A stretch of 60,652 bases of DNA. It comes from Nitrospirota bacterium (lineage in GTDB: Bacteria; Nitrospirota; Thermodesulfovibrionia; Thermodesulfovibrionales; UBA1546). A model generated the notes under the pieces. That model saw only the letters and a list, made by a program, of their open reading frames with translations, had not been told where the DNA came from and ran no database searches. Where the stretch lies: NCBI GenBank assembly GCA_026387575.1, contig JAPLLK010000092.1, positions 1-60,652 of the forward strand. The letters are read 5' to 3'. The first letter of the stretch is position 1. The number at the start of each line of letters is the position of its first letter. The translations under genes were made by a program, and so were the position numbers. Below are positions 10,295 through 56,191 of the stretch, piece after piece.

Positions 10295-10321
10295 CACTTC
10301 CCGGTTTTCTTCCCCAAACCC

Positions 10322-10636: not shown

Positions 10637-10646
10637 GACACACCTC

Positions 10647-13262: not shown

Positions 13263-14786
13263 ATGGGCAGTTCTACCTTATTCGGCATATCCACAATGGC
13301 TTACATACTGGCAATGATAACCTACATCACATATCTTGCCTTCAGAAATTCGCAGACAGGCACAGTTGCAACAGCGCTTACGATAACAGGATTTATCTCC
13401 CAGACATTAGCATTTACAGTAAGATGGTCTGAGTCTTATATGCAGTGGACAACGCTTATGCCTGAGAGTTCATCTGTAATGTCTCTTCTGCGAAGCGCTC
13501 CCTTAAGGAATCTCTACGAATCTCTGGTATTCTTTGTCTGGTGTCTTATACTTGGGTATTTGATAATAGAGTTCAAATACAAAAACCGCTCCTTCGGAGC
13601 ATTCATAACCCCTGTGGCAGGCATTGCGCTTGCGTTTATCGGACTGTCAGGCATGTCACAAGATATACAGCCCTTGGTCCCTGCACTCCAGAGCAACTGG
13701 CTTCTTGCCCATGTAATGATGAGTTTTATTGCTTACGCAGCATTTGCAATCGCATTCAGTACAGGATTGATGTATCTCATAGCCACATCAGAAAGACAGG
13801 AAAAAAGACATATCTTTTGGATTGTATTTTCGGTCTTTGCAATACTGCTTGCGCTCATCTCCCAGAGTCCTCAGACAATAATGCTGTGGATAATCAGCTT
13901 TGCCTTTGTCATAGCAGTGGACATAAAACAGAACATAGACATTGCCAAGCGCATATCCTCAAAGAAAGAGGGCAATTCCTCAGGCGCCTTAAAGAGACTG
14001 ATGACTGTAATCGGCCTTTCGCTTGTCAGCATAGCGGCAATATTAATATTCATACAGCTTGTCAAGCTCCAGATTATCAAGGCAGACGATGCGGCAAAGC
14101 TAAGACATCTTGACACTGGGGCGCGGGCATCTTCATTCGCAGGGAACATTATGGGAATTGTCGGTTTTATATTCTTCCTCTGCGTTGTATTGATAAAATA
14201 TCTGATTCTGAAAAAAGAATACTATCTCTTCTGGACTTTAACCTCAGGAATATTCGTATTCGTACTTCTGGCAATGGGCATTGACTTTCTGATGTTCAGG
14301 GTTATGGGAGTAATGCCTGCTCAGGATGGCAGCATCGGGCTGAGGGCTACACTCCTCAGTCATTCTCCTGTTATTGCAGTGCTCAGTTATGCAGCGCTCA
14401 TAGTCTTTCTGTATGTGATATGGCGTTACGGCCCTATCTTAAAAAAGATAATTTCCGGCATTAACATTTCCACGGACTTTCTTGGTGAGATTACATACAA
14501 GAGCATATCTATCGGCTTTCCTGTCTTCACACTCGGAGGACTGATATTCGGCGCCATCTGGGCTGACCAGTCATGGGGAACATACTGGAGCTGGGACCCA
14601 AAAGAAACATGGTCGCTGATAACATGGTTCGTTTATGCCTTTTTCCTTCACAGCCGCCTGCTCAGAGGATGGAGGGGCAAAAAAGTTGCAATCGTCGCAG
14701 TGCTGGGTTTCGTCGTTGTAATCTTTACTTATATCGGAGTAAACCTGCTTCTTTCAGGCCTCCATTCATACGGAAGCATGGAATAG
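13263..14786 (+). CDS. ccsA: cytochrome c biogenesis protein CcsA/ResC (system II heme handling), unusually long
   Basis: Trp-rich [18 protein letters not shown] motif with flanking conserved His residues (LAHV..., LHSR). The protein is 507 aa and has extra central TM helices. Confidence 0.85.
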
Positions 14787-41741: not shown

Positions 41742-41828
41742 GCCGGAGTGGCGGAATTGGTAGACGCAAGGGACTTAAAATCCCTCGTCGGCAACGGCGT
41801 GCCGGTTCAAATCCGGCCTCCGGCACCA
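41742..41828 (+). tRNA. tRNA-Leu (anticodon UAA), CCA encoded
   Basis: Cloverleaf read by eye: acceptor GCCGGAG/CTCCGGC, anticodon stem AGGGA/TCCCT with loop CTTAAAA, a long variable arm, and T-arm GCCGG-TTCAAAT-CCGGC. Confidence 0.9.
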
Positions 41829-41834
41829 TATAAA

Positions 41835-42071
41835 TCAATGGGTTACGGGATTCCATGTCCTTCTCTCTTTCTCCTTAAAATGGCCAATTGTAACCTTTTT
41901 GTAACCATTTGAGATCATTTCAAGTTTTTCCTTCGTCTCTTTGTGCATCATTGTAACTTTTTCAGAAGCCCTTCTTAAGTCTGCCTCATTCACAATGTTA
42001 TACCTGTCAAAGACTGAGCGCGTCTTATGTCCTGAAATCTTCATAGCAACCTTTTCTGGGACTCCAGCCAC
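41835..42071 (-). pseudogene. tyrosine recombinase (phage integrase) C-terminal fragment
   Basis: The 78-codon ORF contains only the terminal catalytic block ...[26 protein letters not shown] (His...Tyr). The upstream frame closes at a TGA within about 30 nt, so no N-terminal or core domains remain. Confidence 0.75.
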
Positions 42072-42863: not shown

Positions 42864-43937
42864 TTATGCGGTAGGCTCCCAAATATATTTACCGGTCTTA
42901 TCAATATACCCCATATAAGCAATCTCTGCTATGTCATCTGAACGTCGTTTATTTCTCTGATATTGATTTTCGAAGCCAACCCATGCCAATCCATTCTCAA
43001 AGCTCCATGCTGTATCATACTTTGGTTCAATAACTATTTTACCTTGCCGGTTAATAAATCCGTCTTTGCGGTCAATTTTAACAGAAGCCATACCGTGAGA
43101 AAAGCCAAAAGCATTTTCATATTTCGGCTCTATTACTATTTCTCCGGTTTTATTAATAAACCCCCACTTGCCCTCAAGCTTTACTGCTGCCAAGCCATCA
43201 TTGAATGCTTTAACTTCCTGAAACCGCTTGTTACCGATAATTATCCTGCCTGTTCTGTCAATATACGTATCAGGATACCATCGTTTACCTACACGTGCTA
43301 ACCCTTCGTTAAAATTGAAGGCTGATTTATATTGCGGCTTGATAACAAACTTGCCACCCTTGACTATGTAGCCCCATTTTTTGCCTAATAACACCTCAGC
43401 TAATCCCTCTGAAAAAACAACAGGCATGCGACTCTGCGGTTTAATGACAATTCTACCCTCTTTGTCTACACACCCCCATTTCTTATTAACCATCACAGAG
43501 ACTAAACCCTCAGAAAAATAGTATGCCTCTTCAAATTGAGGCTCTATAACCATTGCGCCTGTTTTATTGATAAAGCCCCATTTCCCATTTGGCCCTTTCA
43601 CTGGCGCAAGACCTTCAGAAAAAATGGTGAACGATTCAAACTGCGGCTTTAATACCATTCTGCCGGTCTTATCAATAAATCCGTATTTGTTTTTTACTTT
43701 GACGGTTGCCAACCCATCGGAAAAATTACATGCTGAGTCAAACTGCGGATTTATGACAACAGTGCCTTTTGAATTAATATACCCTCTTTTGCCATCAACA
43801 GTGACGGGGAATAACGGGGCTTCTATTGAATCTTTCTTAATTGCGGCTAAAGCAAAATCGCTATAGGTTAAAGCAACTCCTGTTATAGCCAACCCTCTTA
43901 AAAAATCTCTTCTGCTAAGCATAATTCCTCCTTGCAA
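42864..43937 (-). CDS. WG-repeat (KWG-type) protein with twin-arginine signal peptide
   Basis: 357 aa with the SRRDFLRGLAITG Tat motif, followed by about 9 repeats of the pattern GxINxxGxxVIxPQFxxAxxFSEGLAxV...KWGF. Confidence 0.8.
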   Translation of the reverse strand: MQGGIMLSRRDFLRGLAITGVALTYSDFALAAIKKDSIEAPLFPVTVDGKRGYINSKGTVVINPQFDSACNFSDGLATVKVKNKYGFIDKTGRMVLKPQFESFTIFSEGLAPVKGPNGKWGFINKTGAMVIEPQFEEAYYFSEGLVSVMVNKKWGCVDKEGRIVIKPQSRMPVVFSEGLAEVLLGKKWGYIVKGGKFVIKPQYKSAFNFNEGLARVGKRWYPDTYIDRTGRIIIGNKRFQEVKAFNDGLAAVKLEGKWGFINKTGEIVIEPKYENAFGFSHGMASVKIDRKDGFINRQGKIVIEPKYDTAWSFENGLAWVGFENQYQRNKRRSDDIAEIAYMGYIDKTGKYIWEPTA

Positions 43938-43977
43938 TTGTCCGATTTAAAATTTAATTAGCCTTATTCTAATATTG

Positions 43978-44004
43978 CACCTCCCCCATGGAGTGTCCGG
44001 GGTT
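43978..44004 (-). promoter_or_regulatory. island motif copy a (CACCTCCCCCATGGAGTGTCCGGGGTT, plus-strand reading)
   Basis: One of four copies of a 27-bp motif, 40 nt upstream of the WG-repeat gene start. Confidence 0.6.
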
Positions 44005-44035: not shown

Positions 44036-44611
44036 TCAGCCTTTCCCTAAAGCAGACCTGTCCGCTGCTGTTAATGCCTTTTCTGCCCTAACCTCAAAAA
44101 CAACCGGCTTTACCGCAACCCTGTTCTCTGCCTTCCATCCCGGGCGTAAGACCTCTATCTCAAAGCCTTCTATAGTTTCATCCCCGAGGGATTCAGGATA
44201 GTCCTCGAACTCATAGTCTTTTGCGGAATCCCTGCTTACTCTTAATCTCTCCCCTTTGGCCTTAAAAGGCTCTATCCCGAGTGTATTTGAAAGGGTGTCA
44301 TATACTCCGAGCAGGACAGCGTTCTGCTCTATATTTCCGTCATCTTTCCCTGATTCGACCCTGTTTTTATGCTCAATAAGGGCATGGAGGATGTCTCCGT
44401 TAACAGAGCGGCACAATCTGTTTATGATCTCCTTTTTTACCTCGAAAGAGGTCATCTCCCTCAGGTCGCGCAGTGACGCCATGAATCCATTTGCCTGTAT
44501 GTCAGCCTTTCTAATGTACCCTTCGAGTTTTCTCAGGGTATTCCATACGTCCTTCGGCCTCTTCCTGATTGTTGTCGAGCGAGATTTTTTCTTTGTCTTA
44601 TTCTTTTTCAC
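44036..44611 (-). CDS. hypothetical protein, possibly a GrpE-like nucleotide-exchange factor
   Basis: 191 aa from GTG 44611, preceded by GGGAGGAGGAG. It has a basic/helical N-terminus and a C-terminus ...LGIEPFKAKGERL...IEVLRPGWKAENRVAVKPVVFEV that resembles the GrpE pattern G.e.i...G..f....h.A...v..GY....r..r.A.V.V. This is a by-eye match only. Confidence 0.5.
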   Translation of the reverse strand: MKKNKTKKKSRSTTIRKRPKDVWNTLRKLEGYIRKADIQANGFMASLRDLREMTSFEVKKEIINRLCRSVNGDILHALIEHKNRVESGKDDGNIEQNAVLLGVYDTLSNTLGIEPFKAKGERLRVSRDSAKDYEFEDYPESLGDETIEGFEIEVLRPGWKAENRVAVKPVVFEVRAEKALTAADRSALGKG

Positions 44612-46979
44612 GCAGACTCTCCTCCTCCCATATCCCTGATTCAGGCCCGGCAATGAGCCTATCAGGGCTTACGTTAAGTACCTTGGAGTTTTTTAAATCC
44701 CTGAGCTTTTTACCTGCTATCTGAGCATCTTCATAATCACCGAGCGCCCTGTTTGCGCCTTCAAGGAAATCAAGATACCTCTCAGTCTGTGGATACTGGG
44801 AGCACAGCCTCCTTAATATCTGCCTCGCCATCTTGTATTCCTTAATAGCCTGCGCCTCATTTCCTGATTTCCTGTAAGCTTGGCCGAGCCAATAATAGGC
44901 GGCATAGTGCTCTGAATCAATATCAAGTGCCTGCCTTAATCTTGAAATGCCCTCATCAATCTTTCCGCAGTCAGCAAGCTGGCAGCCATAATTTGTTGCA
45001 TATATGACATTGTCTGGTGCCATCTCAAAAGCCTTCCTGAAATATTCGAGGGCCTTTTCTTCTTCCCCCCTATCTTCATAGCAGAGCGCAACAATATTAT
45101 TAAGGCCTGCTGTATTTATGCCCTTATCCTGAAGCCTCTCGATTATCTCCACGGCTGCGCCTGTATTTCCTCTGAGCCTTTCCCTGTTTGAAAGCTCTAT
45201 CATCAACTCAGGGTCAGCCTTCTGACGCCCTTTCTTCATTTCAGCCGCCTTCTTCCATAACTCGCCTGCGGCGATGTCCTCAGGGGTATTAATGTTATGA
45301 GTCCACGGATGGCTTAGCTCAGCATCTATCTTTATATCAGGCTTATACACAAGGCCTGCGGTAAACTTCATAACCTTGTTCCTGTCTATATGCAGTCCTA
45401 TGCTCACAGGCTCACCCTTTTTAATGCCTTCAGGCAGCGAAAGCTTCAGGTTGCTTATCACCTTTCCGTTTCCCGAGTATATGGATATCCCGACGCTTTC
45501 AAGATTGTCCTTTGGGATGCAGAAATTATCGTTAACAGAAAAGTCTCCGTTGCCGGGAAAGGGAAGCTCAGTCCCAGCAGCCAGAAGTTTCTCCCTTTTC
45601 AGTCCCAGGGTGAAGATTCCTATCTCGTCATTTACTATGGGGATGACAACAGGCCTTTCATTTTTATGCAGATAGTAGCACTGAATTGCAGCACCCTTTG
45701 AAACAGAAAGGTCAAGGTCAGGCGCATCAAAGAACCTCGCATTCCTGAAGCTATCGAATGTCTCAAAGGCCCTTCTTATGATTGGGTTATGGCAGCTCCC
45801 TCCGTTAAAGATAAACGCGTCAATAGCTTCCGGCGATAGGTTCGCCTTATCAAGTGCATTAAATACAGGGCCGAAGAATGAGTATATGAAATAATCATCA
45901 GCAATCCTGCAGGAACCATCAAAATTATACGAGACAAACGGCTTCATAAGTTCCAGAAACCTCTCTGCGCTTGTAGTGCCGGATATCTTCCTGGTCTTTA
46001 TATCAAGGGCTGAGATATGAAAAGCATCGACTGACCATTGCTGCTTGCAGGTCCTGCCCCTGCCTCCTGAAATCATCATGCATATGCTTTCCTTAAGACT
46101 TTTTGCCGTAATTTTAAGCCTGAACCTGAGCTCCCTTTTAACTTTTTCTGGGAGGGAACCGAAATCAATGGAATTTTTTTCGCAGTATAAAGGAAGAATC
46201 TCCGCTTCAACGATATGAAGATCTATGTTATCCCCGCCAAGCTTCTCGTAATTGCTTATCGACCTGTTTTTGATGTTAAGGCCTATGCCGTTACTGACCG
46301 CATCTGCATCATATGATGCTTCAAAAACAGAGATATCGCATGTGCCTGCCCCAAGGTCGAACATAACGGTCTTTCTTGGTCTCTTCATATCAAGATTCGA
46401 GTCGAGCTTTTGGTGGCAGGCAGTATGTATGAATGCTGCAACAGGCTCATCAAGGAGGCCACCGTCATCAAGCGTCAGGCCTGCCAGCCTTGCAGCCTTT
46501 ATTGTGTCCTCGCGCTGGTTGTGGGCAAAGGAGGCGGGCACTGTTATCACAACATGGGATTTCTTTGGAGATATGCCTGTCTCTTTTTCTGCTACCCTTA
46601 TAAGCTTTTTTATTATCTCTGCGGAAACCTCAACAGGAGAGATTATCTCAGGATGGACTGAATCCTCGTATATCTTCAGAGTTCCCATGTCAGACTTGAC
46701 AGACACAAACAGGTTTTCGAAAGGTTTAGCCCTTTTGCCAGCGGCTTCCTCCAATGCCTCAAACCCTGTTATGACCTTCTTAGAGTTCTGCCTATGCTCT
46801 ATGTAGACAACAGAAGGCAGCCTCTGCCAGTTATGAAAGAGTGTTGCTCCTGCATGCGGATTGAACTTTATCGTTACCGGCTCTATATAAGTGCGATGAC
46901 TGCTGTTCCTGCCTTCAACAAGGTAACTTATGGATGAACTGCTTGTTCCAAGATCAATTCCGAAATAGACCTTGCTCAT
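44598..46979 (-). CDS. Hsp70-family ATPase (NBD + SBD-beta-like) fused to C-terminal TPR repeats
   Basis: 793 aa from ATG 46979 (RBS AAGGAGG). Hsp70 motifs are GIDLGTSSS, VVITVPASFAHNQREDTIKAARLAGL, LLDEPVAAF, VMFDLGAGTCDISVFE, GGDNID and FNGGSCHNPIIRRAFE. An SBD-beta-like stretch and about 5 TPR units (...ALEYFRKAFEMAPDN..., ...YYWLGQAYRKSGNEAQAIKEY...) follow. Confidence 0.85.
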   Translation of the reverse strand: MSKVYFGIDLGTSSSSISYLVEGRNSSHRTYIEPVTIKFNPHAGATLFHNWQRLPSVVYIEHRQNSKKVITGFEALEEAAGKRAKPFENLFVSVKSDMGTLKIYEDSVHPEIISPVEVSAEIIKKLIRVAEKETGISPKKSHVVITVPASFAHNQREDTIKAARLAGLTLDDGGLLDEPVAAFIHTACHQKLDSNLDMKRPRKTVMFDLGAGTCDISVFEASYDADAVSNGIGLNIKNRSISNYEKLGGDNIDLHIVEAEILPLYCEKNSIDFGSLPEKVKRELRFRLKITAKSLKESICMMISGGRGRTCKQQWSVDAFHISALDIKTRKISGTTSAERFLELMKPFVSYNFDGSCRIADDYFIYSFFGPVFNALDKANLSPEAIDAFIFNGGSCHNPIIRRAFETFDSFRNARFFDAPDLDLSVSKGAAIQCYYLHKNERPVVIPIVNDEIGIFTLGLKREKLLAAGTELPFPGNGDFSVNDNFCIPKDNLESVGISIYSGNGKVISNLKLSLPEGIKKGEPVSIGLHIDRNKVMKFTAGLVYKPDIKIDAELSHPWTHNINTPEDIAAGELWKKAAEMKKGRQKADPELMIELSNRERLRGNTGAAVEIIERLQDKGINTAGLNNIVALCYEDRGEEEKALEYFRKAFEMAPDNVIYATNYGCQLADCGKIDEGISRLRQALDIDSEHYAAYYWLGQAYRKSGNEAQAIKEYKMARQILRRLCSQYPQTERYLDFLEGANRALGDYEDAQIAGKKLRDLKNSKVLNVSPDRLIAGPESGIWEEESLREKE

Positions 46980-46998
46980 ATTGCCTCCTTTGTTGCAA

Positions 46999-47349
46999 TC
47001 ACCATGCCGCGATTGCTGGATTTTCAAACGGAGCTGCCATGAAATTCCTGCGCGGCATGTATCTTTTGAGTTTCTTTTTTATCTGCCTGAGCCCTTTTTT
47101 ATTCCTGTAGGCTGTGATCAGGCATTTCCCGTCATTAGAGACAACAAGGGTTGTGCCCTCAAGTTTTGCGTACCTGTCATCCCTGAGATACCCTGATGGG
47201 ATGTCGTGCCTTCCTAGAAACACAAAAAGAGCGCCTGCCCTGTGTATCTTCTGCCCGAATCTAAGCAAGAATTCTATGTTCTCTCCTCTGATGTTACGCT
47301 GTGAGGCCCTCTCGAAAGCATGTTTGCTGAATCTTTCGAACATCTCCAT
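46999..47349 (-). CDS. DUF4258-like (BECR-fold RNase toxin-type) domain protein
   Basis: 116 aa. FSKHAFERASQRNIRGENIEFLL...GTTLVVSNDGKCLITAYRNK matches my recollection of the DUF4258 pattern (S.HA.eR...R.I......ViTvYr). The RBS is AAGGAGGG. Confidence 0.55.
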   Translation of the reverse strand: MEMFERFSKHAFERASQRNIRGENIEFLLRFGQKIHRAGALFVFLGRHDIPSGYLRDDRYAKLEGTTLVVSNDGKCLITAYRNKKGLRQIKKKLKRYMPRRNFMAAPFENPAIAAW

Positions 47350-47358
47350 GCCCTCCTT

Positions 47359-47520
47359 TTAAACTTTTCTTTTTTCGATTATCTTCCTGAGTTCATTAGC
47401 AGTTACATGAGCTTTAATCTCATAAAAGCGTACGGTTCTGTGCCACCTTACAACGCTGACAAACATGAAGACGCTGGATATAACAAATAGAATCACTATG
47501 ATGCTTAGAATTGCTGTCAT
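47359..47520 (-). CDS. small single-pass membrane protein (53 aa), first gene of the Hsp70-TPR operon
   Basis: Below the ORF-track cutoff. My translation is MTAILSIIVILFVISSVFMFVSVVRWHRTVRFYEIKAHVTANELRKIIEKRKV. A strong RBS AAGGAGGA precedes it, and it ends 9 nt before the next start. Confidence 0.45.
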   Translation of the reverse strand: MTAILSIIVILFVISSVFMFVSVVRWHRTVRFYEIKAHVTANELRKIIEKRKV

Positions 47521-47573
47521 TTTGTCCTCCTTTTTTGGTTAAAAATTAATTTCATGTTTTAAGTATAAAGGGG

Positions 47574-47600
47574 CACCTCCCCCAAGGGATGTCTGAGGTT
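47574..47600 (-). promoter_or_regulatory. island motif copy b (CACCTCCCCCAAGGGATGTCTGAGGTT)
   Basis: 53 nt upstream of the small-TM gene start. It lies within a 45-nt stretch identical to copy d. Confidence 0.6.
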
Positions 47601-47723: not shown

Positions 47724-48797
47724 TCAGTGTTTTTCTGCCATTCTCTGTTTTACCGCTTGCTGCAACTCTTTCAATGGCTCATTTTCGGGCTCCAAAGCAA
47801 GCCCTTTTTTGATAACTTCATCTGCTTCATCAAGTCTCCCTAAATCTATTGCTGTTTCCGCAAGATTTTCATACAGCCCAACAACGTCAGGAATCTTTTC
47901 AACTCCTTCTTTGGCTATCATATACGCCTCATGGCGCAAATCGGCATCCATATATGAACAGCAGAGGCCTCCGTAAACGTTGTCTGATTCAAGTCCCATT
48001 TCTTTTGCTGTCCTGTAATAGCAAATCGCTGCCCACGGTTCTTTCCTCTCCAGATTGCAATATCCCATTTCAATAAGATACCGAGGGTCATCAGGGACTA
48101 TTTCAAGCAGTTCTGTCAGCACTTTGAATGCCTCTTCATGGTATCCAAGAAGATTAAGAGATAGCGCCTTGTTATACAACAAAGGCGTAATATCATTTAC
48201 ATCGCTTGCAAGTGCTTGGTCAAAGTATCTCAATGCCTCATACAGATCATCCATCCTGTAAAACAATAAACCCATTAAATTGAGCAATGCTGAAGATTCA
48301 GGATATTTTTCAAGGGCCTCCTCAAGTAGTTCACTTGCCTTTTTATACTCTTCTCTCTCGATAAGCTCTCTCGTGATTCCATAATAGCGTTGCTCGCCAT
48401 GAGATTTCCATGGAAGCGAATTATATATGCTCATTGCCTTTTCATATTCCTCTTGGTCGAGATGCAATTCTCCGATTTGGATTAAAAGATCGTTAAGTTT
48501 GCTCTTGAGTGTTTTCTTTTTTTTGGGCTCAGTTGTTTCTTCCAGTTTTTCCCTGAGCTTCTCAACCCTTGCGTTCAACTTTCTGACTTCCCTCTCTGCC
48601 TTTGCCGTATTCTTGTCCATTATCAATCCTCCTTTATTTCTCATTTTACTTTCTAAATATTTTTGACGTGCTTGCCTAACAGCTTCTTTTGATACTGGCT
48701 CGTCTCCACCAAGAGACTCTATATAAGAGTCCAATGCCTCACCATACTGTTCGTCTGTTAAATGTCTAACTGGCGGGTGTTTTCTGTTGGTTATCAT
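47724..48797 (-). CDS. coiled-coil + TPR repeat protein (paralog 1)
   Basis: 357 aa with a charged helical N-terminus followed by TPR units. It is clearly paralogous to 52844-53839 (for example LLYNKALSLNLLGYHEEA vs ALYNKALSLNNLGYYEDA, and PDDPRYLIEMGY vs PDDPEYLVEMGY). Confidence 0.8.
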   Translation of the reverse strand: MITNRKHPPVRHLTDEQYGEALDSYIESLGGDEPVSKEAVRQARQKYLESKMRNKGGLIMDKNTAKAEREVRKLNARVEKLREKLEETTEPKKKKTLKSKLNDLLIQIGELHLDQEEYEKAMSIYNSLPWKSHGEQRYYGITRELIEREEYKKASELLEEALEKYPESSALLNLMGLLFYRMDDLYEALRYFDQALASDVNDITPLLYNKALSLNLLGYHEEAFKVLTELLEIVPDDPRYLIEMGYCNLERKEPWAAICYYRTAKEMGLESDNVYGGLCCSYMDADLRHEAYMIAKEGVEKIPDVVGLYENLAETAIDLGRLDEADEVIKKGLALEPENEPLKELQQAVKQRMAEKH

Positions 48798-48842: not shown

Positions 48843-48869
48843 GACATCCCCCATAGAGTGTCCGAGGTT
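48843..48869 (-). promoter_or_regulatory. island motif copy c (GACATCCCCCATAGAGTGTCCGAGGTT)
   Basis: 45 nt upstream of the TPR paralog 1 start. Confidence 0.6.
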
Positions 48870-49116
48870 TTAAAAAAGGGGATTTAAGCAGATTTTAGGA
48901 GGCGATGATACTTAAGCACTATTTCGGGGCGGATGGGAAAGGTGAGAGAATTTAGCGGGAAATTCAGAAAGCGCCCCTCTCGGCATCACTACTTACCTAG
49001 AGCAATCTGATTCGCCATATACCGCTCCAATCCTCATCTGCTTCAAACCAGTACCCCTCAAGAATTTTGCTTTTTTCAAACATATGCAATGCGGCTTTAC
49101 CGTTCACACTCGGTGC

Positions 49117-49362
49117 TCAAAGCTCATAGTGACCTTTTCCTTTTTCAGTCCCCTGATATACAACATAGCCACCATCTTCTAAAGGATACGATACAACGAT
49201 TCGAGAATCATCAAATTTTATTTCACCCTCAATTTTCACCTCAGCACCTTCGTCAAAATAGGAAAAATCAATTGAATATTTATTGACGATTGGGAGATGC
49301 TCCTTGCTGGGAATAGAGCATTTTCTCTTTAAGGTTGTTTTTAAATTTGATCTTTTTGCCAT
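49117..49362 (-). CDS. hypothetical protein (possibly truncated by an in-frame TGA)
   Basis: 81 aa. The same frame stays open for 39 more codons after the TGA (to 48997). Confidence 0.4.
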   Translation of the reverse strand: MAKRSNLKTTLKRKCSIPSKEHLPIVNKYSIDFSYFDEGAEVKIEGEIKFDDSRIVVSYPLEDGGYVVYQGTEKGKGHYEL

Positions 49363-49466
49363 CTAAATCCTCCTCGTGAACTCACTTATGGCTTAAATAA
49401 AAGCCCTGCTACTGCTACCTAATGCAGCTATTGCCTTTCAGCTATTCTGTAGTTTCTTGAGTCAAT

Positions 49467-51146
49467 TTACTGTTTCTTTGACAAAGGAGGACCTGGCCAA
49501 ATCTTCATGGCTACTCTAAGAAGCCTTTCCCCTCTCTTTTCGATTTCTGTCTTTGTCCATGTATCGTATTTCGCAATAATCTTTGTCAGCCAGTAAGGAC
49601 TTTTTTTGTAGCCTTTCTTTTTTTCTTTAAAACCGTGATTCCCCAATGTGGGATTATATGCGGTGAGACTTAGGTTTCCCATAACATGCAGGCTCTTCTT
49701 CAAATCAGATAAGGAGTTAGAATCCCAATCGTTCATTTTTGCCTGCTGTGGAAACACGTGCTCAATCTGGATAGATTTGCCCAACTGCAATTCTTTATCA
49801 GCAGACTTGTAACGTTCTATACTTTCTAAAGCAAATCTGGCAGTTGCAGGTGCGGTTGTATAAATAGAGGATGAGACAAAGCATGTTCTGAACTGATCAT
49901 CATCTGGCCACTTTTCATCTTTCAGGATTTTAGATAGGTTCTTACCCTTCTTATCAATTAGTTTCTTGGCAATTCGAGCAAAGACTTGGTTTAGATCACG
50001 TGACACTTTGCTATTAAACGCTCGCCGAACAACGAACGACTCAATGTATTGCAAAGCCCGTTCTAAATCCTTGATAGTTATTTCTTCATTTGCCAGAGAA
50101 CGATATAACACCAGCAAAACGGGATAGTAAGTTGTCATCTTTAAGTCTACAAGTCTTTGCAGTTGCGAACGCAGCTTTTTTCTTTGCTCAAGTTCAGGAT
50201 TGAGAAATTTGCAATATTGCCCGGCTTCATTGAGAAGCATTTTTAATTTATCCTCAACGTGACCATCATGGAAAAAAGACCGTAACTCCCTGAATAAATC
50301 AGTTGTGCTGATATATTTTTCTTTTTGAACGACTAGAACAGCCCGAAGAAAGTCTCTCAATATTTTTTGGAATTCAGCTTTTTTAGCCTTCCCATTACCG
50401 TCAGATATACTTTCCTCTATCTTATCCTCTATCCCTCGCCAGTAAGTATTATTTAGCCTTTCTTGTTCCTTCCCATTTCTTACAAGGCTTAAAATAAAAT
50501 TACGGGCAAGATCAGACTGGGTCAACGGAACGCCAGCATAGTTAATTGATTCAAATATGGCGTGAGCATCATCATTATCAGTCAGAACAATTTCCACAAA
50601 TACCATGCCCGACAATACGGTTTTCAGAAAGTTGTTGAAGTGGCTCGGTTTTTTCCCTTTTGTATTCTCAATATGGTTCTGAATTCCTTCATGGAAAAAA
50701 TCATAACCTGCTCTGACTTGTTTATGCCGAACTTTCTGAAGTCCGTCTGGATTACCTAAAAGACGATTAAATGCATCCTGATCATGGAGCGATGGTTTAA
50801 ATCTTGGATTTCCTTTTATTGTAAGATGTCTTTCTATTTCTCTTGTTTTAGCAGTGGCATATTTATGGGACAACGACCTCAACACTGTCAAAATAATTGT
50901 GAATGTTGCCAAACGTTGCTGGCCGTCAATTATTATAAAATGACGGTTTCTGGAATCGGGTTTAAAAACCAATGTACCCATAAAATGCCGTTTGCCGGTT
51001 CCATCCATAATCTTCGTAATGTCATCCAGCAACTGTACGAAATTCTTTTGCTTCCACGCATACCGTCTTTGAAATGGTGGAACGATAAATACATTCTTAT
51101 TCTTATGGCCTATCAGCTTTTCTATAGTGCGCTCTTCAACCTTCAT
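49467..51146 (-). CDS. DUF262/DUF1524 protein (GmrSD-type, putative modification-dependent Type IV restriction nuclease)
   Basis: 559 aa. N-terminal DUF262 motifs are FIVPPFQRRYAWKQKNFVQLLDDI and IIIDGQQRL. The C-terminal His-Me/HNH-like DUF1524 motifs are IEHVFPQ...GNLSLTAYNPTLGNHGF. Confidence 0.85.
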   Translation of the reverse strand: MKVEERTIEKLIGHKNKNVFIVPPFQRRYAWKQKNFVQLLDDITKIMDGTGKRHFMGTLVFKPDSRNRHFIIIDGQQRLATFTIILTVLRSLSHKYATAKTREIERHLTIKGNPRFKPSLHDQDAFNRLLGNPDGLQKVRHKQVRAGYDFFHEGIQNHIENTKGKKPSHFNNFLKTVLSGMVFVEIVLTDNDDAHAIFESINYAGVPLTQSDLARNFILSLVRNGKEQERLNNTYWRGIEDKIEESISDGNGKAKKAEFQKILRDFLRAVLVVQKEKYISTTDLFRELRSFFHDGHVEDKLKMLLNEAGQYCKFLNPELEQRKKLRSQLQRLVDLKMTTYYPVLLVLYRSLANEEITIKDLERALQYIESFVVRRAFNSKVSRDLNQVFARIAKKLIDKKGKNLSKILKDEKWPDDDQFRTCFVSSSIYTTAPATARFALESIERYKSADKELQLGKSIQIEHVFPQQAKMNDWDSNSLSDLKKSLHVMGNLSLTAYNPTLGNHGFKEKKKGYKKSPYWLTKIIAKYDTWTKTEIEKRGERLLRVAMKIWPGPPLSKKQ

Positions 51147-51261
51147 TGTTTATCACCCACAAAATATACTATCCGCATCACCAAAAATCTTCATTATGGT
51201 CTTAGCTCCAGGGTTAAGAATACCAGTTAAATCTTCAGGCATAAAATGCTCCTTCTTTCAA

Positions 51262-51486
51262 CTATCTTTTTTCAACTCGTGGCGCCTTGTCTTCCATCAA
51301 CTTACCAAACTTATCCCAACCCATCTTGTACCCATAAGAAGTCTTCTTTGGAAACCAGACAAGAGAGCCGTTTGATACAGCAAGGGTACCCAACAAGACT
51401 ACACCATTGCGTTTTATAAGAAATTCTACATCTGCTTTGCCCAAAGAACGCTGAGGAATGTTGAATAAGACATCATGTTTTGCCAT
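51262..51486 (-). CDS. hypothetical small protein
   Basis: 74-aa ORF between the HD and GmrSD genes on the same strand. I recognise no motif. Confidence 0.4.
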   Translation of the reverse strand: MAKHDVLFNIPQRSLGKADVEFLIKRNGVVLLGTLAVSNGSLVWFPKKTSYGYKMGWDKFGKLMEDKAPRVEKR

Positions 51487-51542
51487 TATAACCCTCCTTC
51501 ATTTTTAATGATTCAACGTATATCATACCGCGACTTTCAGTT

Positions 51543-52730
51543 TCACTCAAAATCTGCGTAGATCTCGCCAAAATTTATCCCTGCGATATTGGCCCTGCCG
51601 TAGCTGTTCCTGAATGACAGTTTTGCCTCCTGAAACTCCTGATTCGGGCTTCCGTTTCTTATTGCAGCAGAGGCCTCAATGAAAGCTGAAAGGCTGTCGG
51701 CAGCCTTGACAATATCTCCATCTCTTGGATTGAATTTGCTTTCGTTATATTTATCACTTATTCCCCTGCTTTTCATCTTCTCAGTTTTATTATCTATCGT
51801 TATAATGTTGTCGAATTCATTCTCCGTGAACATTCTTATCTCAGGATGCCAGTCTTCCGGAATAAGGCCGTAAACCTCTTTTTCCATCTGTTCTTTTTCA
51901 TATTGCTTTATCAGCTCGCTCAAGCCGTCAATAGACCTTTTGACAGGGGAGATTATGTCCCTTGTGAGCACCTCCGGAAGGTCATGGAATAAGCCTGTGA
52001 AATAGTTATTTGCGCATCTTCTCTCGCAGGCATTTATCTCAAGCGAAAACAAATAAGATAAGATGGCAACATAAAGCGAATGACCTATTACGGAAGTCTT
52101 TGGAATCCTGTGGAGTTTTGCCCATCGTGCCTGAAATCTTAGCTGACCGCACAGGTTAATGAAGTTCCTGTACCTGACATGCTCTTTTAATTGAGCCATG
52201 CCCTTCAGGTCTGAGTATTTCTTCTGCGCTTCTGCCAATGACTGTTTAATTGCCGCTATCTCATATCCTTCAGGATTTGTACGCTCTATGATGTTAAATT
52301 CCCATTTGGTTGCATACAAATGCGCTGCGCTCAGAATTCTTTTATTTAATGTATCCTCTGTATTCAGGAAATAATCCTGAAATCTTTTGCAGAAGCCTTC
52401 TCCCAGCGGAGAGATTAATGGTTTTATTTCATTGTACGCCCATTCGTTCAACTGTCTGTATTTATCAGTATCCTGCTTTATCTTATAAAATATCGGGGGC
52501 TTCAAATCTGTAATGACAAGCCTCTGTAGAAGCTCAAAGATTCCACCTTCAATAATCTCTATCCAGTTGAAACCTTTTGTGTTTTCCTCGAACTTGCCAA
52601 GGAAATATGCAATTATCATTTTATGAGCCTGCTTGTCGAGTTCAATCATCTCCACAGGCCGGACTTTATCGTTCCACCTCTGCATATAGGCAGCGTCAAA
52701 GATTTTGAGAAGCAGTGCCTTTCGTATCAT
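51543..52730 (-). CDS. HD-domain phosphohydrolase
   Basis: 395 aa with ...VIGHSLYVAILSYLF... and ...GLFHDLPEVLTRDI..., the H...HD metal-binding signature. Confidence 0.8.
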   Translation of the reverse strand: MIRKALLLKIFDAAYMQRWNDKVRPVEMIELDKQAHKMIIAYFLGKFEENTKGFNWIEIIEGGIFELLQRLVITDLKPPIFYKIKQDTDKYRQLNEWAYNEIKPLISPLGEGFCKRFQDYFLNTEDTLNKRILSAAHLYATKWEFNIIERTNPEGYEIAAIKQSLAEAQKKYSDLKGMAQLKEHVRYRNFINLCGQLRFQARWAKLHRIPKTSVIGHSLYVAILSYLFSLEINACERRCANNYFTGLFHDLPEVLTRDIISPVKRSIDGLSELIKQYEKEQMEKEVYGLIPEDWHPEIRMFTENEFDNIITIDNKTEKMKSRGISDKYNESKFNPRDGDIVKAADSLSAFIEASAAIRNGSPNQEFQEAKLSFRNSYGRANIAGINFGEIYADFE

Positions 52731-52767
52731 GCGAATATCTTCATCCCTTCCGGCAAATTATGCTGCT

Positions 52768-52796
52768 ATTATACTTCCACAGCATCATAAAAACAA
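52768..52796 (-). promoter_or_regulatory. candidate internal promoter for the HD gene
   Basis: Read on the minus strand: TTGTTT, 17-nt spacer, perfect TATAAT, about 38 nt upstream of ATG 52730. A 6-bp inverted repeat ATGCTG/CAGCAT flanks it. Confidence 0.35.
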
Positions 52797-52843
52797 TTGT
52801 ACTTTTTTTAACGCATCTCAATGTTATAAAACACTTCACATGC

Positions 52844-53839
52844 TCATTTTTTAGGTCTAAATATCCTCATATTGCGTAACTTTTTAATTAGAGCGGCTAC
52901 GATTAAAATCTCTTTAATCGGTGGTTTTTTGCCATTATCAGGATTATTCTCTTCATCCTCAATTTCCTTGAGCAATTCCATCAAGTCATTGTCCTCGGGA
53001 AATACTTCAAGTCCTTTTTTAAGGATATCTTTTGCTTCATCAATCCAGCCCATTTCCTTATAAATGCTGCTAAGGTCTCCATACAAACGGGAATGGCTGT
53101 CAGGCAATTCTTTGATTCCTTCAATTGCTATTTCTAAGGCATCATTTTTTAAACCCATATTATAATATGACCAGAAGAGCCCATCATAAACTGACCAGTT
53201 CAAGTATCCGGCGTCCTTTGCTTTTTTATAAAAAGGTATCGCTTCTTCAGGATATCCTCTGCAAATATCGATATATCCCATTTCAACAAGATATTCCGGG
53301 TCATCAGGATATTTTTCAATAAGGTCTTTAATGATAGGTTCCGCATCTTCATAGTAGCCGAGGTTGTTCAAACTCAGTGCCTTGTTATAAAGCGCATTCC
53401 TGCCATCCGGCGTAAATTTTACGGCTTGCTCGAAATATTTTAATGCCTCAAAATCATTATCCAGCCGCTGGTGCAGACATCCCATTGCAATAAGAAGCGG
53501 GACTGATTCAGGAAAACGACTCAATCCCTTTCCCAGCAATTTTCTGGCTTCATTATAATATTCCATTTCTATAAGTGCCCTTGCCATTCCGGTAAACTTC
53601 ATTTCTGCGTGAGTTCTCCATGAGAGCGTCTGATACATTGCAAGCCCATTTTCATTTTCTCCTGCATCAAGAAGCGCCCATGCAAGCTGATTCTTTAGTT
53701 CGGCAATACAATTCTTATATTCTCTGCCGGCACAATTGCCGGTATTCTCGCCTAAGCCCTTTTGCGCGCGGGAAAGCCTTCTTTTTAGTTTTTTTATTTC
53801 TTGATAAATGACTTTCAGTCTCGGGTCTTTTTTGTTCAT
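52844..53839 (-). CDS. coiled-coil + TPR repeat protein (paralog 2)
   Basis: 331 aa, paralogous to 47724-48797 over most of its length. Confidence 0.8.
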   Translation of the reverse strand: MNKKDPRLKVIYQEIKKLKRRLSRAQKGLGENTGNCAGREYKNCIAELKNQLAWALLDAGENENGLAMYQTLSWRTHAEMKFTGMARALIEMEYYNEARKLLGKGLSRFPESVPLLIAMGCLHQRLDNDFEALKYFEQAVKFTPDGRNALYNKALSLNNLGYYEDAEPIIKDLIEKYPDDPEYLVEMGYIDICRGYPEEAIPFYKKAKDAGYLNWSVYDGLFWSYYNMGLKNDALEIAIEGIKELPDSHSRLYGDLSSIYKEMGWIDEAKDILKKGLEVFPEDNDLMELLKEIEDEENNPDNGKKPPIKEILIVAALIKKLRNMRIFRPKK

Positions 53840-53857
53840 GCTTATATTTTAAAGACA

Positions 53858-53884
53858 GACCTCCCCCAAGGGATGTCTGAGGTT
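53858..53884 (-). promoter_or_regulatory. island motif copy d (GACCTCCCCCAAGGGATGTCTGAGGTT)
   Basis: 18 nt upstream of the TPR paralog 2 start, between the WYL gene stop and TPR2. Confidence 0.6.
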
Positions 53885-53985
53885 AAAAAAAATATTTTGC
53901 TGTCAGGAAGGAGAATTTTTGAGTTAAATGCAAGCTGTAGCGCCTCTAAAGATTAAGGATACTAATGGTAGGGATTCAGGAATTA

Positions 53986-54996
53986 TCAGTAAATTTTTGC
54001 TATCTTTTCAGCCTCTGTCTTAATCAATTCCCTCAGTGCCTCCGGCTTCACAACCTCCACCCCTGCGCCGTGCTTAAGTATCTCCCTTTCAATCTCTGTA
54101 AAATCAGAAACAGGGAAGCTGAGTTCAAGGGAGCCGTCATCGAGAATTTTCGTTTTCTGGTCTTTGTGCCATATCTGGTCATATATCCATTTTGCCTTCT
54201 CCGGCGTAAATCTCAGAATAACCTGTTTAGCAGATCCACCTTTATAAAGCCCAAATGAGGACTGGAAGTAGTCTTTGAAGTTAAAGTTATTTTTTATTGC
54301 AAAATATCTGTCAGCTATCTTTATTTCAGAAATCCTGTTAAGTCTGAAATCCCGTATCTCGCTCCTCATATAGCAGTACCCGATTAGATGCCATGTGCCC
54401 ATATAATTAAAAAGATGATACGGATCAACTGTCCTCTCTGTCTTATCTTTCCTCGCGGGAGAGCTGTACTTGAATGTCAGCGACATTTTTTTCATGCATG
54501 CCTCAAGCACAGTCTTGAATGTATCTTCAGGAGCAGGTGTGTACTCTATAAGGTGGAACGATAGGCATTCATCCATCTTATCAGGGCCTGAGGTATGTTT
54601 TTTAATAAAAGACGTTATCTTGTCAACTGCTGATGTAATCTCTTTTTCGATTCCGCTTCCGCTCATGTCCTGAAGTAGCCGCCTTGCAACAAGCAGAGAT
54701 GTGAGCTCGGATGAAGACAGGTATGTTGAAGGAATGGAGAATGTGTCATTCTCGTAATAATATCCTTTTTTAGACTGGTCATAAAGAAGTGGGGCCTTGA
54801 GTCTCTCCCTCATGAACTCGGTGGTGCGCTGGGCTGTCTTTACTGATATCTCAAACTTTCTGGCAAGGCTTGTGGTGTTGGGAAATTTCTTCCCCTTGAC
54901 CTGACGGTCGAACCATAAAAAACGCTCATATGAGAGTATATCGCCCATATCATGCTCGGACAAAGACATTTTAAGGAATTTACTATAATCTTTCAA
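53986..54996 (-). CDS. HTH-WYL-WCX transcriptional regulator (BrxR/CapW/PafBC-like)
   Basis: The N-terminal HTH is FPNTTSLARKFEISVKTAQRTTEFM. The WYL domain is ERTVDPYHLFNYMGTWHLIGYCYMRSEIRDFRLNRI. The C-terminus is GAGVEVVKPEALRELI. The start is TTG 54996 or ATG 54969. Confidence 0.85.
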   Translation of the reverse strand: MKDYSKFLKMSLSEHDMGDILSYERFLWFDRQVKGKKFPNTTSLARKFEISVKTAQRTTEFMRERLKAPLLYDQSKKGYYYENDTFSIPSTYLSSSELTSLLVARRLLQDMSGSGIEKEITSAVDKITSFIKKHTSGPDKMDECLSFHLIEYTPAPEDTFKTVLEACMKKMSLTFKYSSPARKDKTERTVDPYHLFNYMGTWHLIGYCYMRSEIRDFRLNRISEIKIADRYFAIKNNFNFKDYFQSSFGLYKGGSAKQVILRFTPEKAKWIYDQIWHKDQKTKILDDGSLELSFPVSDFTEIEREILKHGAGVEVVKPEALRELIKTEAEKIAKIY

Positions 54997-55148
54997 TCAA
55001 AATCTGCGTAGGTCTCGCCGAAATTTATCCCTGCGATATTTGCCCTGCCGTAGCTGTTCCTGAATGAGAGCTTTGTGTCATGGAATTCCTGGTTAGGGCT
55101 TCCGTTCCTTATTGCTTCAGAGGCTTCAATGAAAGCGGCAAGACAGGC
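54997..55148 (-). pseudogene. 3'-terminal remnant of a second HD-domain gene
   Basis: About 150 nt roughly 85% identical by eye to the 3' end of the HD gene (51543-51695). It encodes ...FIEASEAIRNGSPNQEFHDTKLSFRNSYGRANIAGINFGETYADFD* versus ...FIEASAAIRNGSPNQEFQEAKLSFRNSYGRANIAGINFGEIYADFE*. Similarity ends abruptly near 55148. Confidence 0.75.
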
Positions 55149-55538
55149 GTTTATTTCGATATGTACTCAGCAAGTTTTACGTAACACGAGATATGTTGGT
55201 AGGTGTGAGAAACATATATTCCTCAAAGTGTCAGCTTCACCCCACAAAACGTGAATTTGAACTGCCCATTAAATTTCCCTATGGCAGACTAACTTAACTC
55301 AGTGTCCGTTAAATCGGGGGAAAATCACTGATATTAAACAATCCAATGCTTTATGGAAAAACTATTGGGATACTATAGACCCATCAGTTAAGGCAGCCGC
55401 TTCTTCTGCGGTTAAGGGCTTGGAATCTGATATAACTCCGACTTTAACTTTTCCACCATCAACCCAAACTCCATCTTTGAAAAGCAAGGGAACCTTGCCC
55501 GAATCCAGTGGTCTTAAATCTATTACTGAACCCTTAAA

Positions 55539-55563
55539 CGTTCTCCGCATGTGCGGGGAACAT
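55539..55563 (-). repeat. degenerate type I-E-like CRISPR repeat copy
   Basis: The minus strand reads ATGTTCCCCGCACATGCGGAGAACG. It shares the palindromic core with the copy at 55938-55966 but has a degenerate 3' handle. Confidence 0.45.
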
Positions 55564-55937
55564 GCGTGAAGCCATGGGCTGATGCCTATCGGTTGCTTTT
55601 TTAGTGAAGTTTGTAACCTCTCCATCCAGGGCTTAATGCCTGTTACAGCACCTGAAGCGTCAATATCTTGACTTCGCTCTGTCCCATTGCTATGCTTCAG
55701 TTATGAAAGCTTTAAAAGATTTCCTCAACGCAATAATCCTCGTTATCGGCGGTATAGCCTTCATCGCTGCACTCGGGCCTATAGGTTTTTTCATCGTTCT
55801 CCTTTTAATCAAACACAAAAAAACTACTGCTGCTTGTTAGGATTCTTCTCGCATTTGCTGCATACCCCTTCACAAAACTACCCAAATTCCAATTTGCATC
55901 TCTCTTTTTGTTTTTCATCGCAAATATCTTCTTTCTC

Positions 55938-55966
55938 CGGTTCATCCCCGCATGTGCGAGGAACAT
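55938..55966 (-). repeat. type I-E-like CRISPR repeat copy (29 nt)
   Basis: The minus strand reads ATGTTCCTCGCACATGCGGGGATGAACCG. It has the same architecture as canonical I-E repeats (GTTCCCCGC-loop-GCGGGGAT-AACCG). Confidence 0.5.
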
Positions 55967-56084
55967 AAGCTGCCAATTTAATCCAACTCCTTCCAACAAT
56001 GAAGAAAAAGAAAAGCCTTTGAAGTCAAAGAATAAATCTCTGAAATCAAAGGCTTTCTGAAATTTTATGAAAGGTTATTTTTCG

Positions 56085-56141
56085 GACTGTAAATCCCTCG
56101 TCCCCAAAGGGCGTGCCGGTTCAAATCCAGCCTCCGGCACA
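56085..56141 (+). repeat. partial tRNA-Leu copy (anticodon arm to acceptor 3' strand): att-type direct repeat marking the distal island end
   Basis: GGACTGTAAATCCCTCGTCCCCAAAGGGCGTGCCGGTTCAAATCCAGCCTCCGGCAC aligns to 41774-41826 of the intact tRNA. There is no 5' half, a T-stem mismatch, and no CCA. Confidence 0.8.
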
Positions 56142-56191
56142 ATATCCGCTCTATACTCTCTACGAGTCGTAGGCTAAGGGTCGCAGACGAG

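Follow-up and report, generated by a model that had tools for sequence, protein, structure and literature searches.

The interval studied here (positions 49117-54996) lies in a 60,652-nt stretch of a Nitrospirota contig (JAPLLK010000092.1), which was analysed at its full length and is referred to below as the window. The interval corresponds to the right half of a tRNA-Leu genomic island that is in decay; the host belongs to the Thermodesulfovibrionales (Nitrospirota), and the interval carries genes for an HTH-WYL-WCX regulator, a TPR protein (TPR2), an HD-domain protein (HD) and a GmrSD-like type IV restriction enzyme. We read this gene row, with a probability of roughly 0.6, as a WYL-controlled, partly decayed mosaic defence island in which a lineage-specific frame carries swappable cargo. 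The frame would comprise the HTH-WYL-WCX regulator, a promoter-associated element (motif d) heading a TPR gene, and a very conserved YfbR-like HD nucleotidase. Cargo cassettes would be placed between and after the frame genes; in the window they would be orf74, the GmrSD-like enzyme and a 120-aa gene broken by a nonsense codon. The row runs on the minus strand throughout (47.7-55.2 kb), and all of the co-directional genes that an initial annotation of the same DNA had listed in it were recovered as open reading frames (ORFs).

Evidence for an exchange of cargo came from related loci. The comparison set comprised seven distinct contexts, five of them with an HD gene at least 87% identical and two being TPR-family contexts without HD (gene orders are given in Table 1). 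Between the same loci, HD proteins were 87-95% identical; because synonymous divergence (dS) of HD was 0.4-3, these loci are not near-clones. The GmrSD of locus L089 (GmrSD-B) was 26% identical to that of the window (GmrSD-A). DNA homology between the window and L089 (84% identical) spans window positions 53184-51163 and ends inside a 29-codon ORF, the product of which matches the N-terminal start of the L089 GmrSD (tblastn, 81% identity over 27 aa). Because of this likeness, and because the DNA homology ends there, the 29-codon ORF is read as the fossil start of a displaced gene and not as a gene; it had been annotated correctly as present with a ribosome-binding site (RBS), at a position (51157-51246) that was off by 4. 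An HD remnant described earlier at 54997-55148 is also real, as it encodes the last ~48 HD residues with 86% DNA identity, and its coordinates are now corrected (Table 1). In L098, 58 nt of the HD 3′ end recur (13357-13414) beyond an inserted RHH-PIN toxin-antitoxin pair; this copy is nearer to the window HD allele than to L098's own HD, and we interpret it as the clean mark of a recombination event inside the HD 3′ end. Moreover, the spacer between HD and an NsnA-like gene in L001 (9189-9303) is homologous to the window through the orf74 RBS and first 22 codons, and is read as the relic of a replaced orf74. For the 29-codon ORF and the HD relic of the window, the best reading is likewise that of scars of cargo exchange, so that leftover gene starts and ends would record how defence cargo is replaced. 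Core defence hotspots of Pseudomonas (PMC10250203) similarly combine conserved flanks, variable defence cargo and junction scars of recombinational replacement; unlike those fixed core genes, the WYL, TPR, HD and PDDEXK_1 genes described here travel with the cargo to different sites (tRNA-Leu, proB, purB and tolQRAB).

The GmrSD-like gene had been considered to explain one defence function by itself, and this held. Its product matched Pfam GmrSD_N (6.7e-35, residues 8-218) and GmrSD_C (3.1e-24, residues 413-544), and gave full-length matches to two PADLOC models, Orf5 (4.3e-105; residues 17-550 on model positions 6-542 of 543) and HEC-06 (7e-80; residues 2-550 on model positions 8-564 of 569). 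Both motifs were intact in the translation, namely IIDGQQRLATF (DGQQR) and IEHVFPQ (the (D/E)H..P motif of His-Me/HNH nucleases), and the DUF262 protein of PDB entry 9jfl was matched at 4.8e-14. HEC-06 GmrSD-like proteins are anti-phage and need the DGQQR and EH motifs, as shown by mutagenesis (bioRxiv 10.1101/2024.01.29.577857). The window enzyme has in common with these single-protein type IV restriction enzymes (see also PMC4619093) the DUF262 and DUF1524 domains together with DGQQR and EH..P; unlike HEC-06, it is not within an Hma system and is preceded by orf74 and the fossil start of another allele. On these matches, we take it to be a bona fide defence gene encoding an HEC-06/'Orf5'-type type IV restriction enzyme. 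A GmrSD enzyme under a WYL regulator would be an ordinary defence function.

Motif d is an element of ~25 bp fused to a -10 box, with the consensus AAAAC-N3-GGACA-Y-N-C-Y-W-TGGGGGAGGT, 7 nt, TATAAT. Thirteen copies were found across six distinct TPR contexts and the window, all co-oriented and upstream of a gene. Every TPR-family context contained the motif, always 7 nt from a TATAAT-like hexamer. The window contains four copies (0.00 expected by chance), and the motif was absent from ~85 other HD loci. Taking the -10 box as reference, the G-rich and invariant block TGGGGGAGGT occupies roughly -29 to -20, with GGACA further upstream at roughly -39 to -35; the motif-d promoters contain no -35 box at a workable spacing. 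For TPR2, a transcription start predicted ~7 nt beyond the TATAAT-like box would give a leaderless transcript. Motif d was also considered as an RNA hairpin or riboswitch. When five copies were folded, z-scores ranged from -2.7 to +0.8, the hairpin was not conserved and Rfam returned nothing; we favour a putative DNA-level promoter or operator over an RNA element. Inspection by eye also led us to drop an integron cassette or attC site: the copies lie upstream of genes and are joined to a -10 box, and the tRNA has beside it an integrase fragment of the tRNA-island type.

The WYL ORF (53986-54996) matched the Pfam families WYL (5.8e-21) and WCX (1.6e-16) as well as the PADLOC WYL model (7.7e-38), the latter covering residues 42-320 in the numbering of the 336-aa mechanical ORF, or about 26-304 in that of the 320-aa protein. 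That a WYL-WCX regulator with a putative HTH heads the row stands, and the length of the mechanical ORF does not: the start is the ATG at 54948, the exact 320-aa sequence is present in the protein collection, and four homologs are all 320 aa. No Pfam HTH match was obtained for the window protein, and the L089 and L101 homologs gave only a weak WHD_BrxR match. The WYL gene was upstream of and co-directional with defence genes in the window, L089, L098, L099 and L101. Among PDB sequences, the best matches of the protein were PafBC (6sj9, 8.4e-19, residues 77-308), PafC (7p5x, 5.8e-10) and DriD (8tp8, 6.8e-10); BrxR (1.1e-5, WYL core only) and CapW (2e-3) were weaker. The WYL genes' own upstream regions contained no conserved inverted repeat and no motif d. 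In L089 (~880-905), L098 (~7915-7939) and L101 (~7170-7195), the extended -10-like sequence TGnTATACT ends 8-9 nt before the WYL ATG, which suggests that these WYL transcripts may be leaderless. The HD relic takes the place of this region in the window, where 54996-54968 matches TTGAAA-17-TAAAAT.

Two kinds of WYL regulator serve for comparison. BrxR-family proteins govern defence islands, mostly those with BREX and type IV enzymes, and repress them via promoter-adjacent inverted repeats (PMC9122601). In BrxR islands such as that of E. fergusonii pEFER, which contains BrxR, BREX and the GmrSD-family enzyme BrxU (PMC9122601, PMC8565348), a wHTH-WYL-WCX regulator heads a co-directional row with a GmrSD-family type IV enzyme, as the WYL-WCX regulator does in the window, and the mosaic defence content is common to both. 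The window differs in that its regulator is much closer to PafBC than to BrxR, in that the regulator gene has no upstream inverted-repeat operator and the cis-element lies downstream of that gene, fused to a -10 box, and in that BREX is lacking and the TPR and HD frame genes are added. PafBC bound to single-stranded DNA (ssDNA), on the other hand, activates promoters that lack a -35 box and combine a -10 box with a -26 element (PMC8635444, PMC11804915). The ssDNA-activated PafBC and DriD, which act by sigma adaptation, are the best sequence matches of the WYL-WCX part, and their promoters have a canonical -10 box, a conserved element centred near -25 and no properly spaced -35 box, a layout that the candidate motif-d promoters would share. 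Differences from PafBC and DriD are the phylum and a single regulator gene (PafBC is a heterodimer or fusion); motif d is unrelated to the PafBC sequence tGTCgg-N10-tAnnnT and is longer, reaching to about -44. A repressor operator fits motif d equally well, so that PafBC-like activation and BrxR-like repression are both consistent with the layout. The WYL protein may bind motif d; given the conserved promoter motif ahead of TPR2, its control of that gene is plausible.

In the mechanism that we propose, the WYL protein would sense a nucleic-acid signal and control the motif-d promoters, at least that of TPR2. Read-through from the motif-d promoter would reach HD, orf74 and GmrSD, as might transcription from a weak internal promoter. 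The GmrSD enzyme would then cut modified phage DNA, and HD would act as a 5′-deoxynucleotidase that clears or depletes (modified) deoxynucleoside monophosphates (dNMPs) arising from DNA degradation, or would serve simply as a conserved sequence for cargo recombination. The candidate internal promoter ahead of HD that had been proposed earlier is present, although it falls under the consensus scan threshold; it is kept only in L089, as TTGTCT-17-TATAAT. A promoter and terminator scan of the window found no intrinsic terminators to define operons.

The assignment of HD rests on its C-terminal half. Pfam matches to YfbR-like (1.6e-26; 93.5 bits against a cut-off of 25.9 bits) and HD_3 (5.8e-26) covered residues 189-376 only, and the score against the NCBIfam 5′-deoxynucleotidase equivalog NF003009 was 59.1 bits, under its 122-bit cut-off. 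An AlphaFold2 (AF2) model (predicted local distance difference test, pLDDT, 78.5; predicted template modelling score, pTM, 0.86) gave YfbR, lin2634 and OxsA as the best Foldseek matches in the PDB. A full-length match was obtained to phrog_30941 (2e-78); the phrog matches included the DatZ dATPase and a dNMP phosphatase, and 6zpa was among the fold matches. When HD was aligned to YfbR (2paq), H33, H68, D69, E72, D77 and D137 of YfbR corresponded to H217, H249, D250, E253, D258 and D345 of HD, all of which were invariant in 27 homologs. In YfbR, these residues bind metal and substrate. HD is thus read as a YfbR-like nucleotidase. With E. coli YfbR (PDB 2paq/2par), OxsA, DatZ and lin2634 it has in common the HD fold, the Pfam YfbR-like match and the metal and substrate residues; unlike the single-domain YfbR type of ~200 aa, it has 395 aa, with an extra 188-residue helical N-terminal domain in no detectable family, it scores under the NCBIfam equivalog cut-off, and in this clade it sits in a defence island. 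By eye, the N-terminal half had been considered a degenerate second HD domain (an 'RW' motif, and 'TD' for 'HD'); hhalign of the N-terminal against the C-terminal half gave a probability of 0.2%, Pfam at E≤10 gave nothing, and the idea was not supported. An origin as a phage gene was rejected, since only two Helicobacter prophage records of the phage collection matched (34% identity). A literature search for YfbR-type enzymes in defence returned nothing relevant.

HD belongs to a large family. It has >7000 homologs; among the best 120, identity is 71-94% and almost every protein has exactly 395 aa. When one genome per species was scanned, 165 loci were found and 80 were kept (62-89% identical), from Nitrospirota, Brocadiaceae/Planctomycetota, Thermodesulfobacteriota, Bacillota, Actinomycetota, Dehalococcoidia and the archaeon Methanofastidiosum; across Nitrospirota, Planctomycetota, Thermodesulfobacteriota, Bacillota, Chloroflexota and Methanofastidiosum, homologs were 62-79% identical. 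None of the 80 kept species loci had a homolog of TPR1/2, WYL, orf74 or the 81-aa ORF within 10 kb of HD. HD was in defence islands only in a small Nitrospirota clade, that with HD at least 87% identical, where in four of the five contexts the next gene downstream encodes a different defence nuclease (GmrSD-A, GmrSD-B, McrBC or an NsnA-like DUF262 protein), co-directional with HD and after a gap of 31-116 nt. The most recurrent neighbour in a fixed position elsewhere was an AddA-like (UvrD helicase plus PDDEXK_1) and AddB-like pair 21 nt downstream of HD, in six of 66 other loci; an example is L005 9210-15139, with five other species loci.

Several points weigh against the reading of a WYL-controlled mosaic defence island. 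The seven contexts all come from related uncultured Nitrospirota-like contigs, and the counts are small and phylogenetically non-independent. The WYL gene is not itself headed by motif d, and the frame may be non-functional in the window, which has no PDDEXK_1 gene. HD is far more conserved than is usual for defence genes. The 98 immediate HD neighbours in ~52 low-GC loci were mostly housekeeping genes (tRNA synthetases, PdxA, CoaBC, RibF and histidine kinases), with a few defence-like ones (KAP/PifA, PDC-S05 and UvrD-type). HD also lacks conserved synteny, and yet it directly precedes a defence nuclease in most of its close contexts. The initial annotation had named a housekeeping family as the alternative for HD; the match to a YfbR-type nucleotidase was borne out, and no conserved core synteny was found around HD (proB, purB, hisD, acs and others), even among Nitrospirota.

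In one alternative, to which we give somewhat less than an even chance, HD would be an ordinary nucleotide-metabolism gene with no defence role, caught in or beside a hotspot, where it serves as a conserved anchor for cargo recombination. The size, uniform length and cross-phylum conservation of the family fit this alternative, as do the mostly housekeeping neighbours and the low ratio of nonsynonymous to synonymous substitution (dN/dS) of HD between loci (0.02-0.08). In two loci, relics of the HD 3′ end sit precisely where cargo is joined, and in Nitrospirae GWC2_42_7 the single HD locus seen among the 80 kept of 165 is island-linked, with no second HD copy seen there. An ordinary metabolic gene fits less well with the lack of core synteny even among Nitrospirota, or with the place of HD inside a tRNA-bounded island in the window. 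Four nuclease systems, moreover, occupy the same position beside HD in differing core surroundings (proB, purB and tRNA-Leu); because the surrounding core genes differ, a single hotspot is not an easy explanation for the four nucleases.

A different role for the same gene is possible, though we consider it doubtful: HD may be a dedicated accessory of modification-dependent or DNA-degrading nucleases, dephosphorylating the (modified) dNMPs freed by GmrSD, McrBC, AddAB-type enzymes or exonucleases, and so blocking their re-use by phage or their mis-incorporation by the host. The position of HD immediately upstream of four unrelated nuclease systems in the ≥87% clade argues for such a role, and the recurrence of the AddA/AddB-like pair just after HD points the same way. 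The aligned and invariant YfbR residues are consistent with it, as is the fact that phage HD enzymes of the same fold (DatZ and the dNMP phosphatase among the phrog matches; 6zpa) edit nucleotide pools. It is at odds with the RHH-PIN pair that follows HD in L098, with the housekeeping neighbours of the ~52 species loci and with the equivalog cut-off that was not reached; the scars at cargo junctions fit a passive recombination anchor. The repeated placement of the 395-aa HD family ahead of different type IV restriction systems in one clade hints that restriction and nucleotide-pool clean-up are coupled.

The TPR genes may point to another unit. TPR2 belongs to a small family (36 clusters, 325-337 aa). 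TPR proteins were 30-58% identical between most loci, the exceptions being two ortholog pairs of the window and L098: the first L098 TPR is 87% identical to TPR2, and the second is 93% identical to TPR1, with which it shares a 90% cluster. The dN/dS of TPR between loci was 0.17-0.27. The constant companions of TPR were the WYL regulator, motif d and a Cas4-like nuclease, and not HD. This nuclease is a PDDEXK_1 protein of ~405 aa that matches Cas4 models and Pfam PDDEXK_1 (8.9e-32); it is also present in L089 and L094, with a fragment in L001, and copies are 66-99% identical to each other. On this basis, a tentative alternative, in our view also improbable rather than probable, is that the real unit comprises WYL, motif d, TPR and the Cas4-like PDDEXK_1, forming an inducible nuclease system for defence or DNA damage that has become degenerate in the window through loss of the nuclease, with GmrSD and HD as passengers. 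Compact rows of these genes in L099 and L101/102, the presence of motif d in all TPR contexts and the closeness of the WYL protein to ssDNA-activated PafBC and DriD argue for it. Against it, neither the window nor the visible part of L098 contains the nuclease, and no PADLOC system model covers the WYL-TPR-PDDEXK_1 combination; the sample is small and drawn from related organisms, and the function is wholly inferred.

What is new here, based on seven contexts, is the frame itself (regulator, motif, TPR and Cas4-like nuclease) and the recurrent juxtaposition of HD with nucleases. The compact WYL-TPR-Cas4-like nuclease row was in none of the defence-system catalogues that were searched. Motif d, with a layout like that of PafBC hybrid promoters and its tie to a WYL regulator, offers a testable case of WYL-dependent control in Nitrospirota. 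A more ambitious version would join these elements: WYL, motif d, TPR and (elsewhere) PDDEXK_1 as an inducible defence or DNA-damage system with PafBC-like 'sigma adaptation' outside Actinobacteria, and HD as the dedicated dNMP-clearing partner of modification-dependent nucleases. We consider this combination improbable; if true, it would provide the first function for an uncharacterised and extremely conserved HD family of >7000 members.

The weakest explanation, an autonomous and duplicated two-gene sensor/effector defence module of TPR2 and HD apart from GmrSD, as proposed in the initial annotation, is very unlikely and by the co-occurrence data largely refuted: a TPR gene was within 10 kb of HD in 0 of the 80 kept species loci (of 165), TPR occurs without HD in L099 and L101 and HD without TPR in L001, other genes separate the two in L098 (Nmad3 and a 142-aa gene) and L094 (McrBC), TPR and HD evolve at very different rates, and neither TPR2 nor HD matches any PADLOC model. 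In its favour, TPR and HD are direct neighbours with the same orientation in two contexts, the window and L089, and only in these, with a spacer conserved between them; both genes are present in four of the seven contexts; TPR2 gave a near-threshold match to TPR-S (sensor TPR); and the island holds a TPR paralog and an HD remnant. The paralog had been identified correctly (TPR1, 40% identical to TPR2 over 282 aa, E 3e-63). Of the supposed duplicates, however, one is an old paralog (its L098 ortholog is 93% identical) and the other, the HD 3′ end, is a scar left by recombination. A self-contained TPR-HD system is thus not supported, and TPR is to be grouped with the WYL regulator, motif d and the Cas4-like nuclease.

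Table 1. Features of the window and gene orders of the compared contexts ("motif" denotes motif d)
Feature	Position	Strand	Description
tRNA-Leu(TAA)	41742-41828	+	Left border and integration site of island; ARAGORN; Rfam tRNA 61.9 bits
Motif d copy 1	43979-43998	-	Upstream of Tat-signal WG-repeat protein
Motif d copy 2	47575-47594	-	Upstream of 53-aa ORF, DUF4258, Hsp70-TPR and 205-aa ORF
TPR1	47724-48797	-	357-aa TPR2 paralog; multiple Pfam TPR families
Motif d copy 3	48844-48863	-	Upstream of TPR1
120-codon gene	48997-49362	-	In-frame TGA at 49119-49117; holds 81-aa ORF (49117-49362; no Pfam match); read-through translation
GmrSD-like type IV restriction enzyme	49467-51146	-	559 aa; DUF262 + DUF1524; Pfam, PADLOC
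29-codon ORF	51153-51242	-	Read as fossil RBS and first 27 codons of displaced GmrSD allele; no Pfam match
orf74	51262-51486	-	Conserved 73-74-aa protein; strong RBS; no Pfam match
HD phosphohydrolase	51543-52730	-	395 aa; C-terminal half YfbR-like; N-terminal 188 residues helical, no family match
Candidate sigma-70-like promoter	52768-52796	-	TTGTTT-17-TATAAT; in TPR2-HD spacer; read from sequence
TPR2	52844-53839	-	331-aa all-TPR protein; Pfam TPR families; TPR-S just under cut-off
Motif d copy 4	53846-53884	-	AACCTCAGACATCCCTTGGGGGAGGT, 7 nt, TAAAAT (-10 box); ends 6 nt before TPR2 ATG
HTH-WYL-WCX transcription factor	53986-54948	-	320 aa; mechanical ORF extends to TTG 54996; Pfam, PADLOC
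HD relic	54991-55149	-	Last ~48 codons and stop; abuts WYL gene; repeat D1, 86% DNA identity to 51541-51699
Direct repeat of tRNA-Leu 3′ end	56084-56145	+	~62 nt; right island border; repeat families D7, D10
Window gene order			HD relic, WYL, motif, TPR2, HD, orf74, (fossil), GmrSD-A, 120-aa pseudogene, motif, TPR1
L089 gene order			WYL, (DsbAB on opposite strand), motif, 72-aa gene, motif, TPR, HD, orf73, GmrSD-B, PDDEXK_1
L098 gene order			WYL, motif, TPR, Nmad3, 142-aa gene, HD, RHH/PIN, HD 3′ relic, DUF7669, two more genes, motif, TPR
L094-96 gene order			purB, PDDEXK_1, HD, McrB, McrC, motif, TPR
L001-4/L008 gene order			proB, PIN toxin-antitoxin pair, HD, (orf74 5′ relic), NsnA-like DUF262/HNH, 224-aa gene, PDDEXK_1 fragment
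L099 gene order			WYL, motif, TPR, PDDEXK_1
L101/102 gene order			tolQRAB, WYL, two motif copies, TPR, PDDEXK_1, further genes, type I restriction-modification

As shown in Table 1, the whole gene row lies inside an island of ~14.3 kb, which has tRNA-Leu(TAA) as its left border and a direct repeat of the tRNA 3′ part as its right border, the arrangement of a tRNA-integrated island. In a repeat search of the window, the right-border repeat was 81-92% identical to 41771-41831. No intact integrase was found beside tRNA-Leu, only a 78-aa ORF (41835-42071) that by eye resembles an integrase C-terminus and has no Pfam match. With only this integrase-like fragment near the tRNA, the island therefore looks immobilised. 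A chemotaxis operon with CheB flanks it, and the names carried by the CheB protein cluster point to Nitrospirota/Thermodesulfovibrionales as the source.

Among the smaller cargo genes, the 81-aa ORF of the initial annotation is present, and it is part of a 120-aa gene interrupted by a nonsense codon: its best homolog, P0292, has 121 aa, carries Arg at the TGA codon and closely matches the downstream 38 codons. The orf74 family comprises 109 homolog clusters of ~73 aa in no Pfam family, and its members lie upstream of GmrSD in the window and L089. An AF2 model of orf74 contains five strands and a helix (pLDDT 73), and no PDB match to this fold had an E value <0.7. A reasonable guess is that orf74 encodes an accessory or control protein associated with restriction. 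As separate observations, a Meiothermus homolog (72% identical) directly precedes the type I restriction-modification operon hsdM-hsdS-hsdR (L092 6001-6222, L093 104-325), and homologs in L090/L091 are found among IS200/IS605-type and rve transposases.

Neither the TPR family nor orf74 was found in IMG/VR viral contigs, and a metagenome scan with TPR2 8-mers gave one weak match only. A short hydrophobic tail flanked by lysines (consensus KPP..G..LLLSLI.KKL.KK; window 52844-52930) forms the C-terminus of TPR2 and of most proteins in its family, and could be a membrane-binding helix; TPR1 has no such tail. The Nmad3 (nucleotide-modification-associated domain 3) gene and the 142-aa gene that lie between TPR and HD in L098 occupy 10000-11258, and Nmad3 gives a hint that DNA or nucleotide modification is a theme of this island family.

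The second motif-d copy of the window heads a row of four ORFs (44036-47594, minus strand), which encode a 53-aa product (strong RBS), a DUF4258 protein (116 aa), an 809-aa Hsp70-like ATPase with C-terminal TPRs and a 205-aa product. None of the four gave a significant PADLOC match, and the row could be another cargo of a motif-d regulon. The first copy is upstream of a gene (42864-43998, minus strand) for a 357-aa Tat-signal protein with eight WG beta-repeats, and such an exported protein is an odd fit in a defence regulon. Near the right border, the 27-nt sequence GTTCCTCGCACATGCGGGGATGAACCG (55938-55964, minus strand) resembles a type I-E CRISPR repeat, and a partial second copy (55542-55563, minus strand) lies 403 nt off, within an 87-aa ORF (55362-55625). 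No CRISPR array or cas gene was found near these copies, which look like the remains of an orphan or degenerate repeat at the right end of the island.

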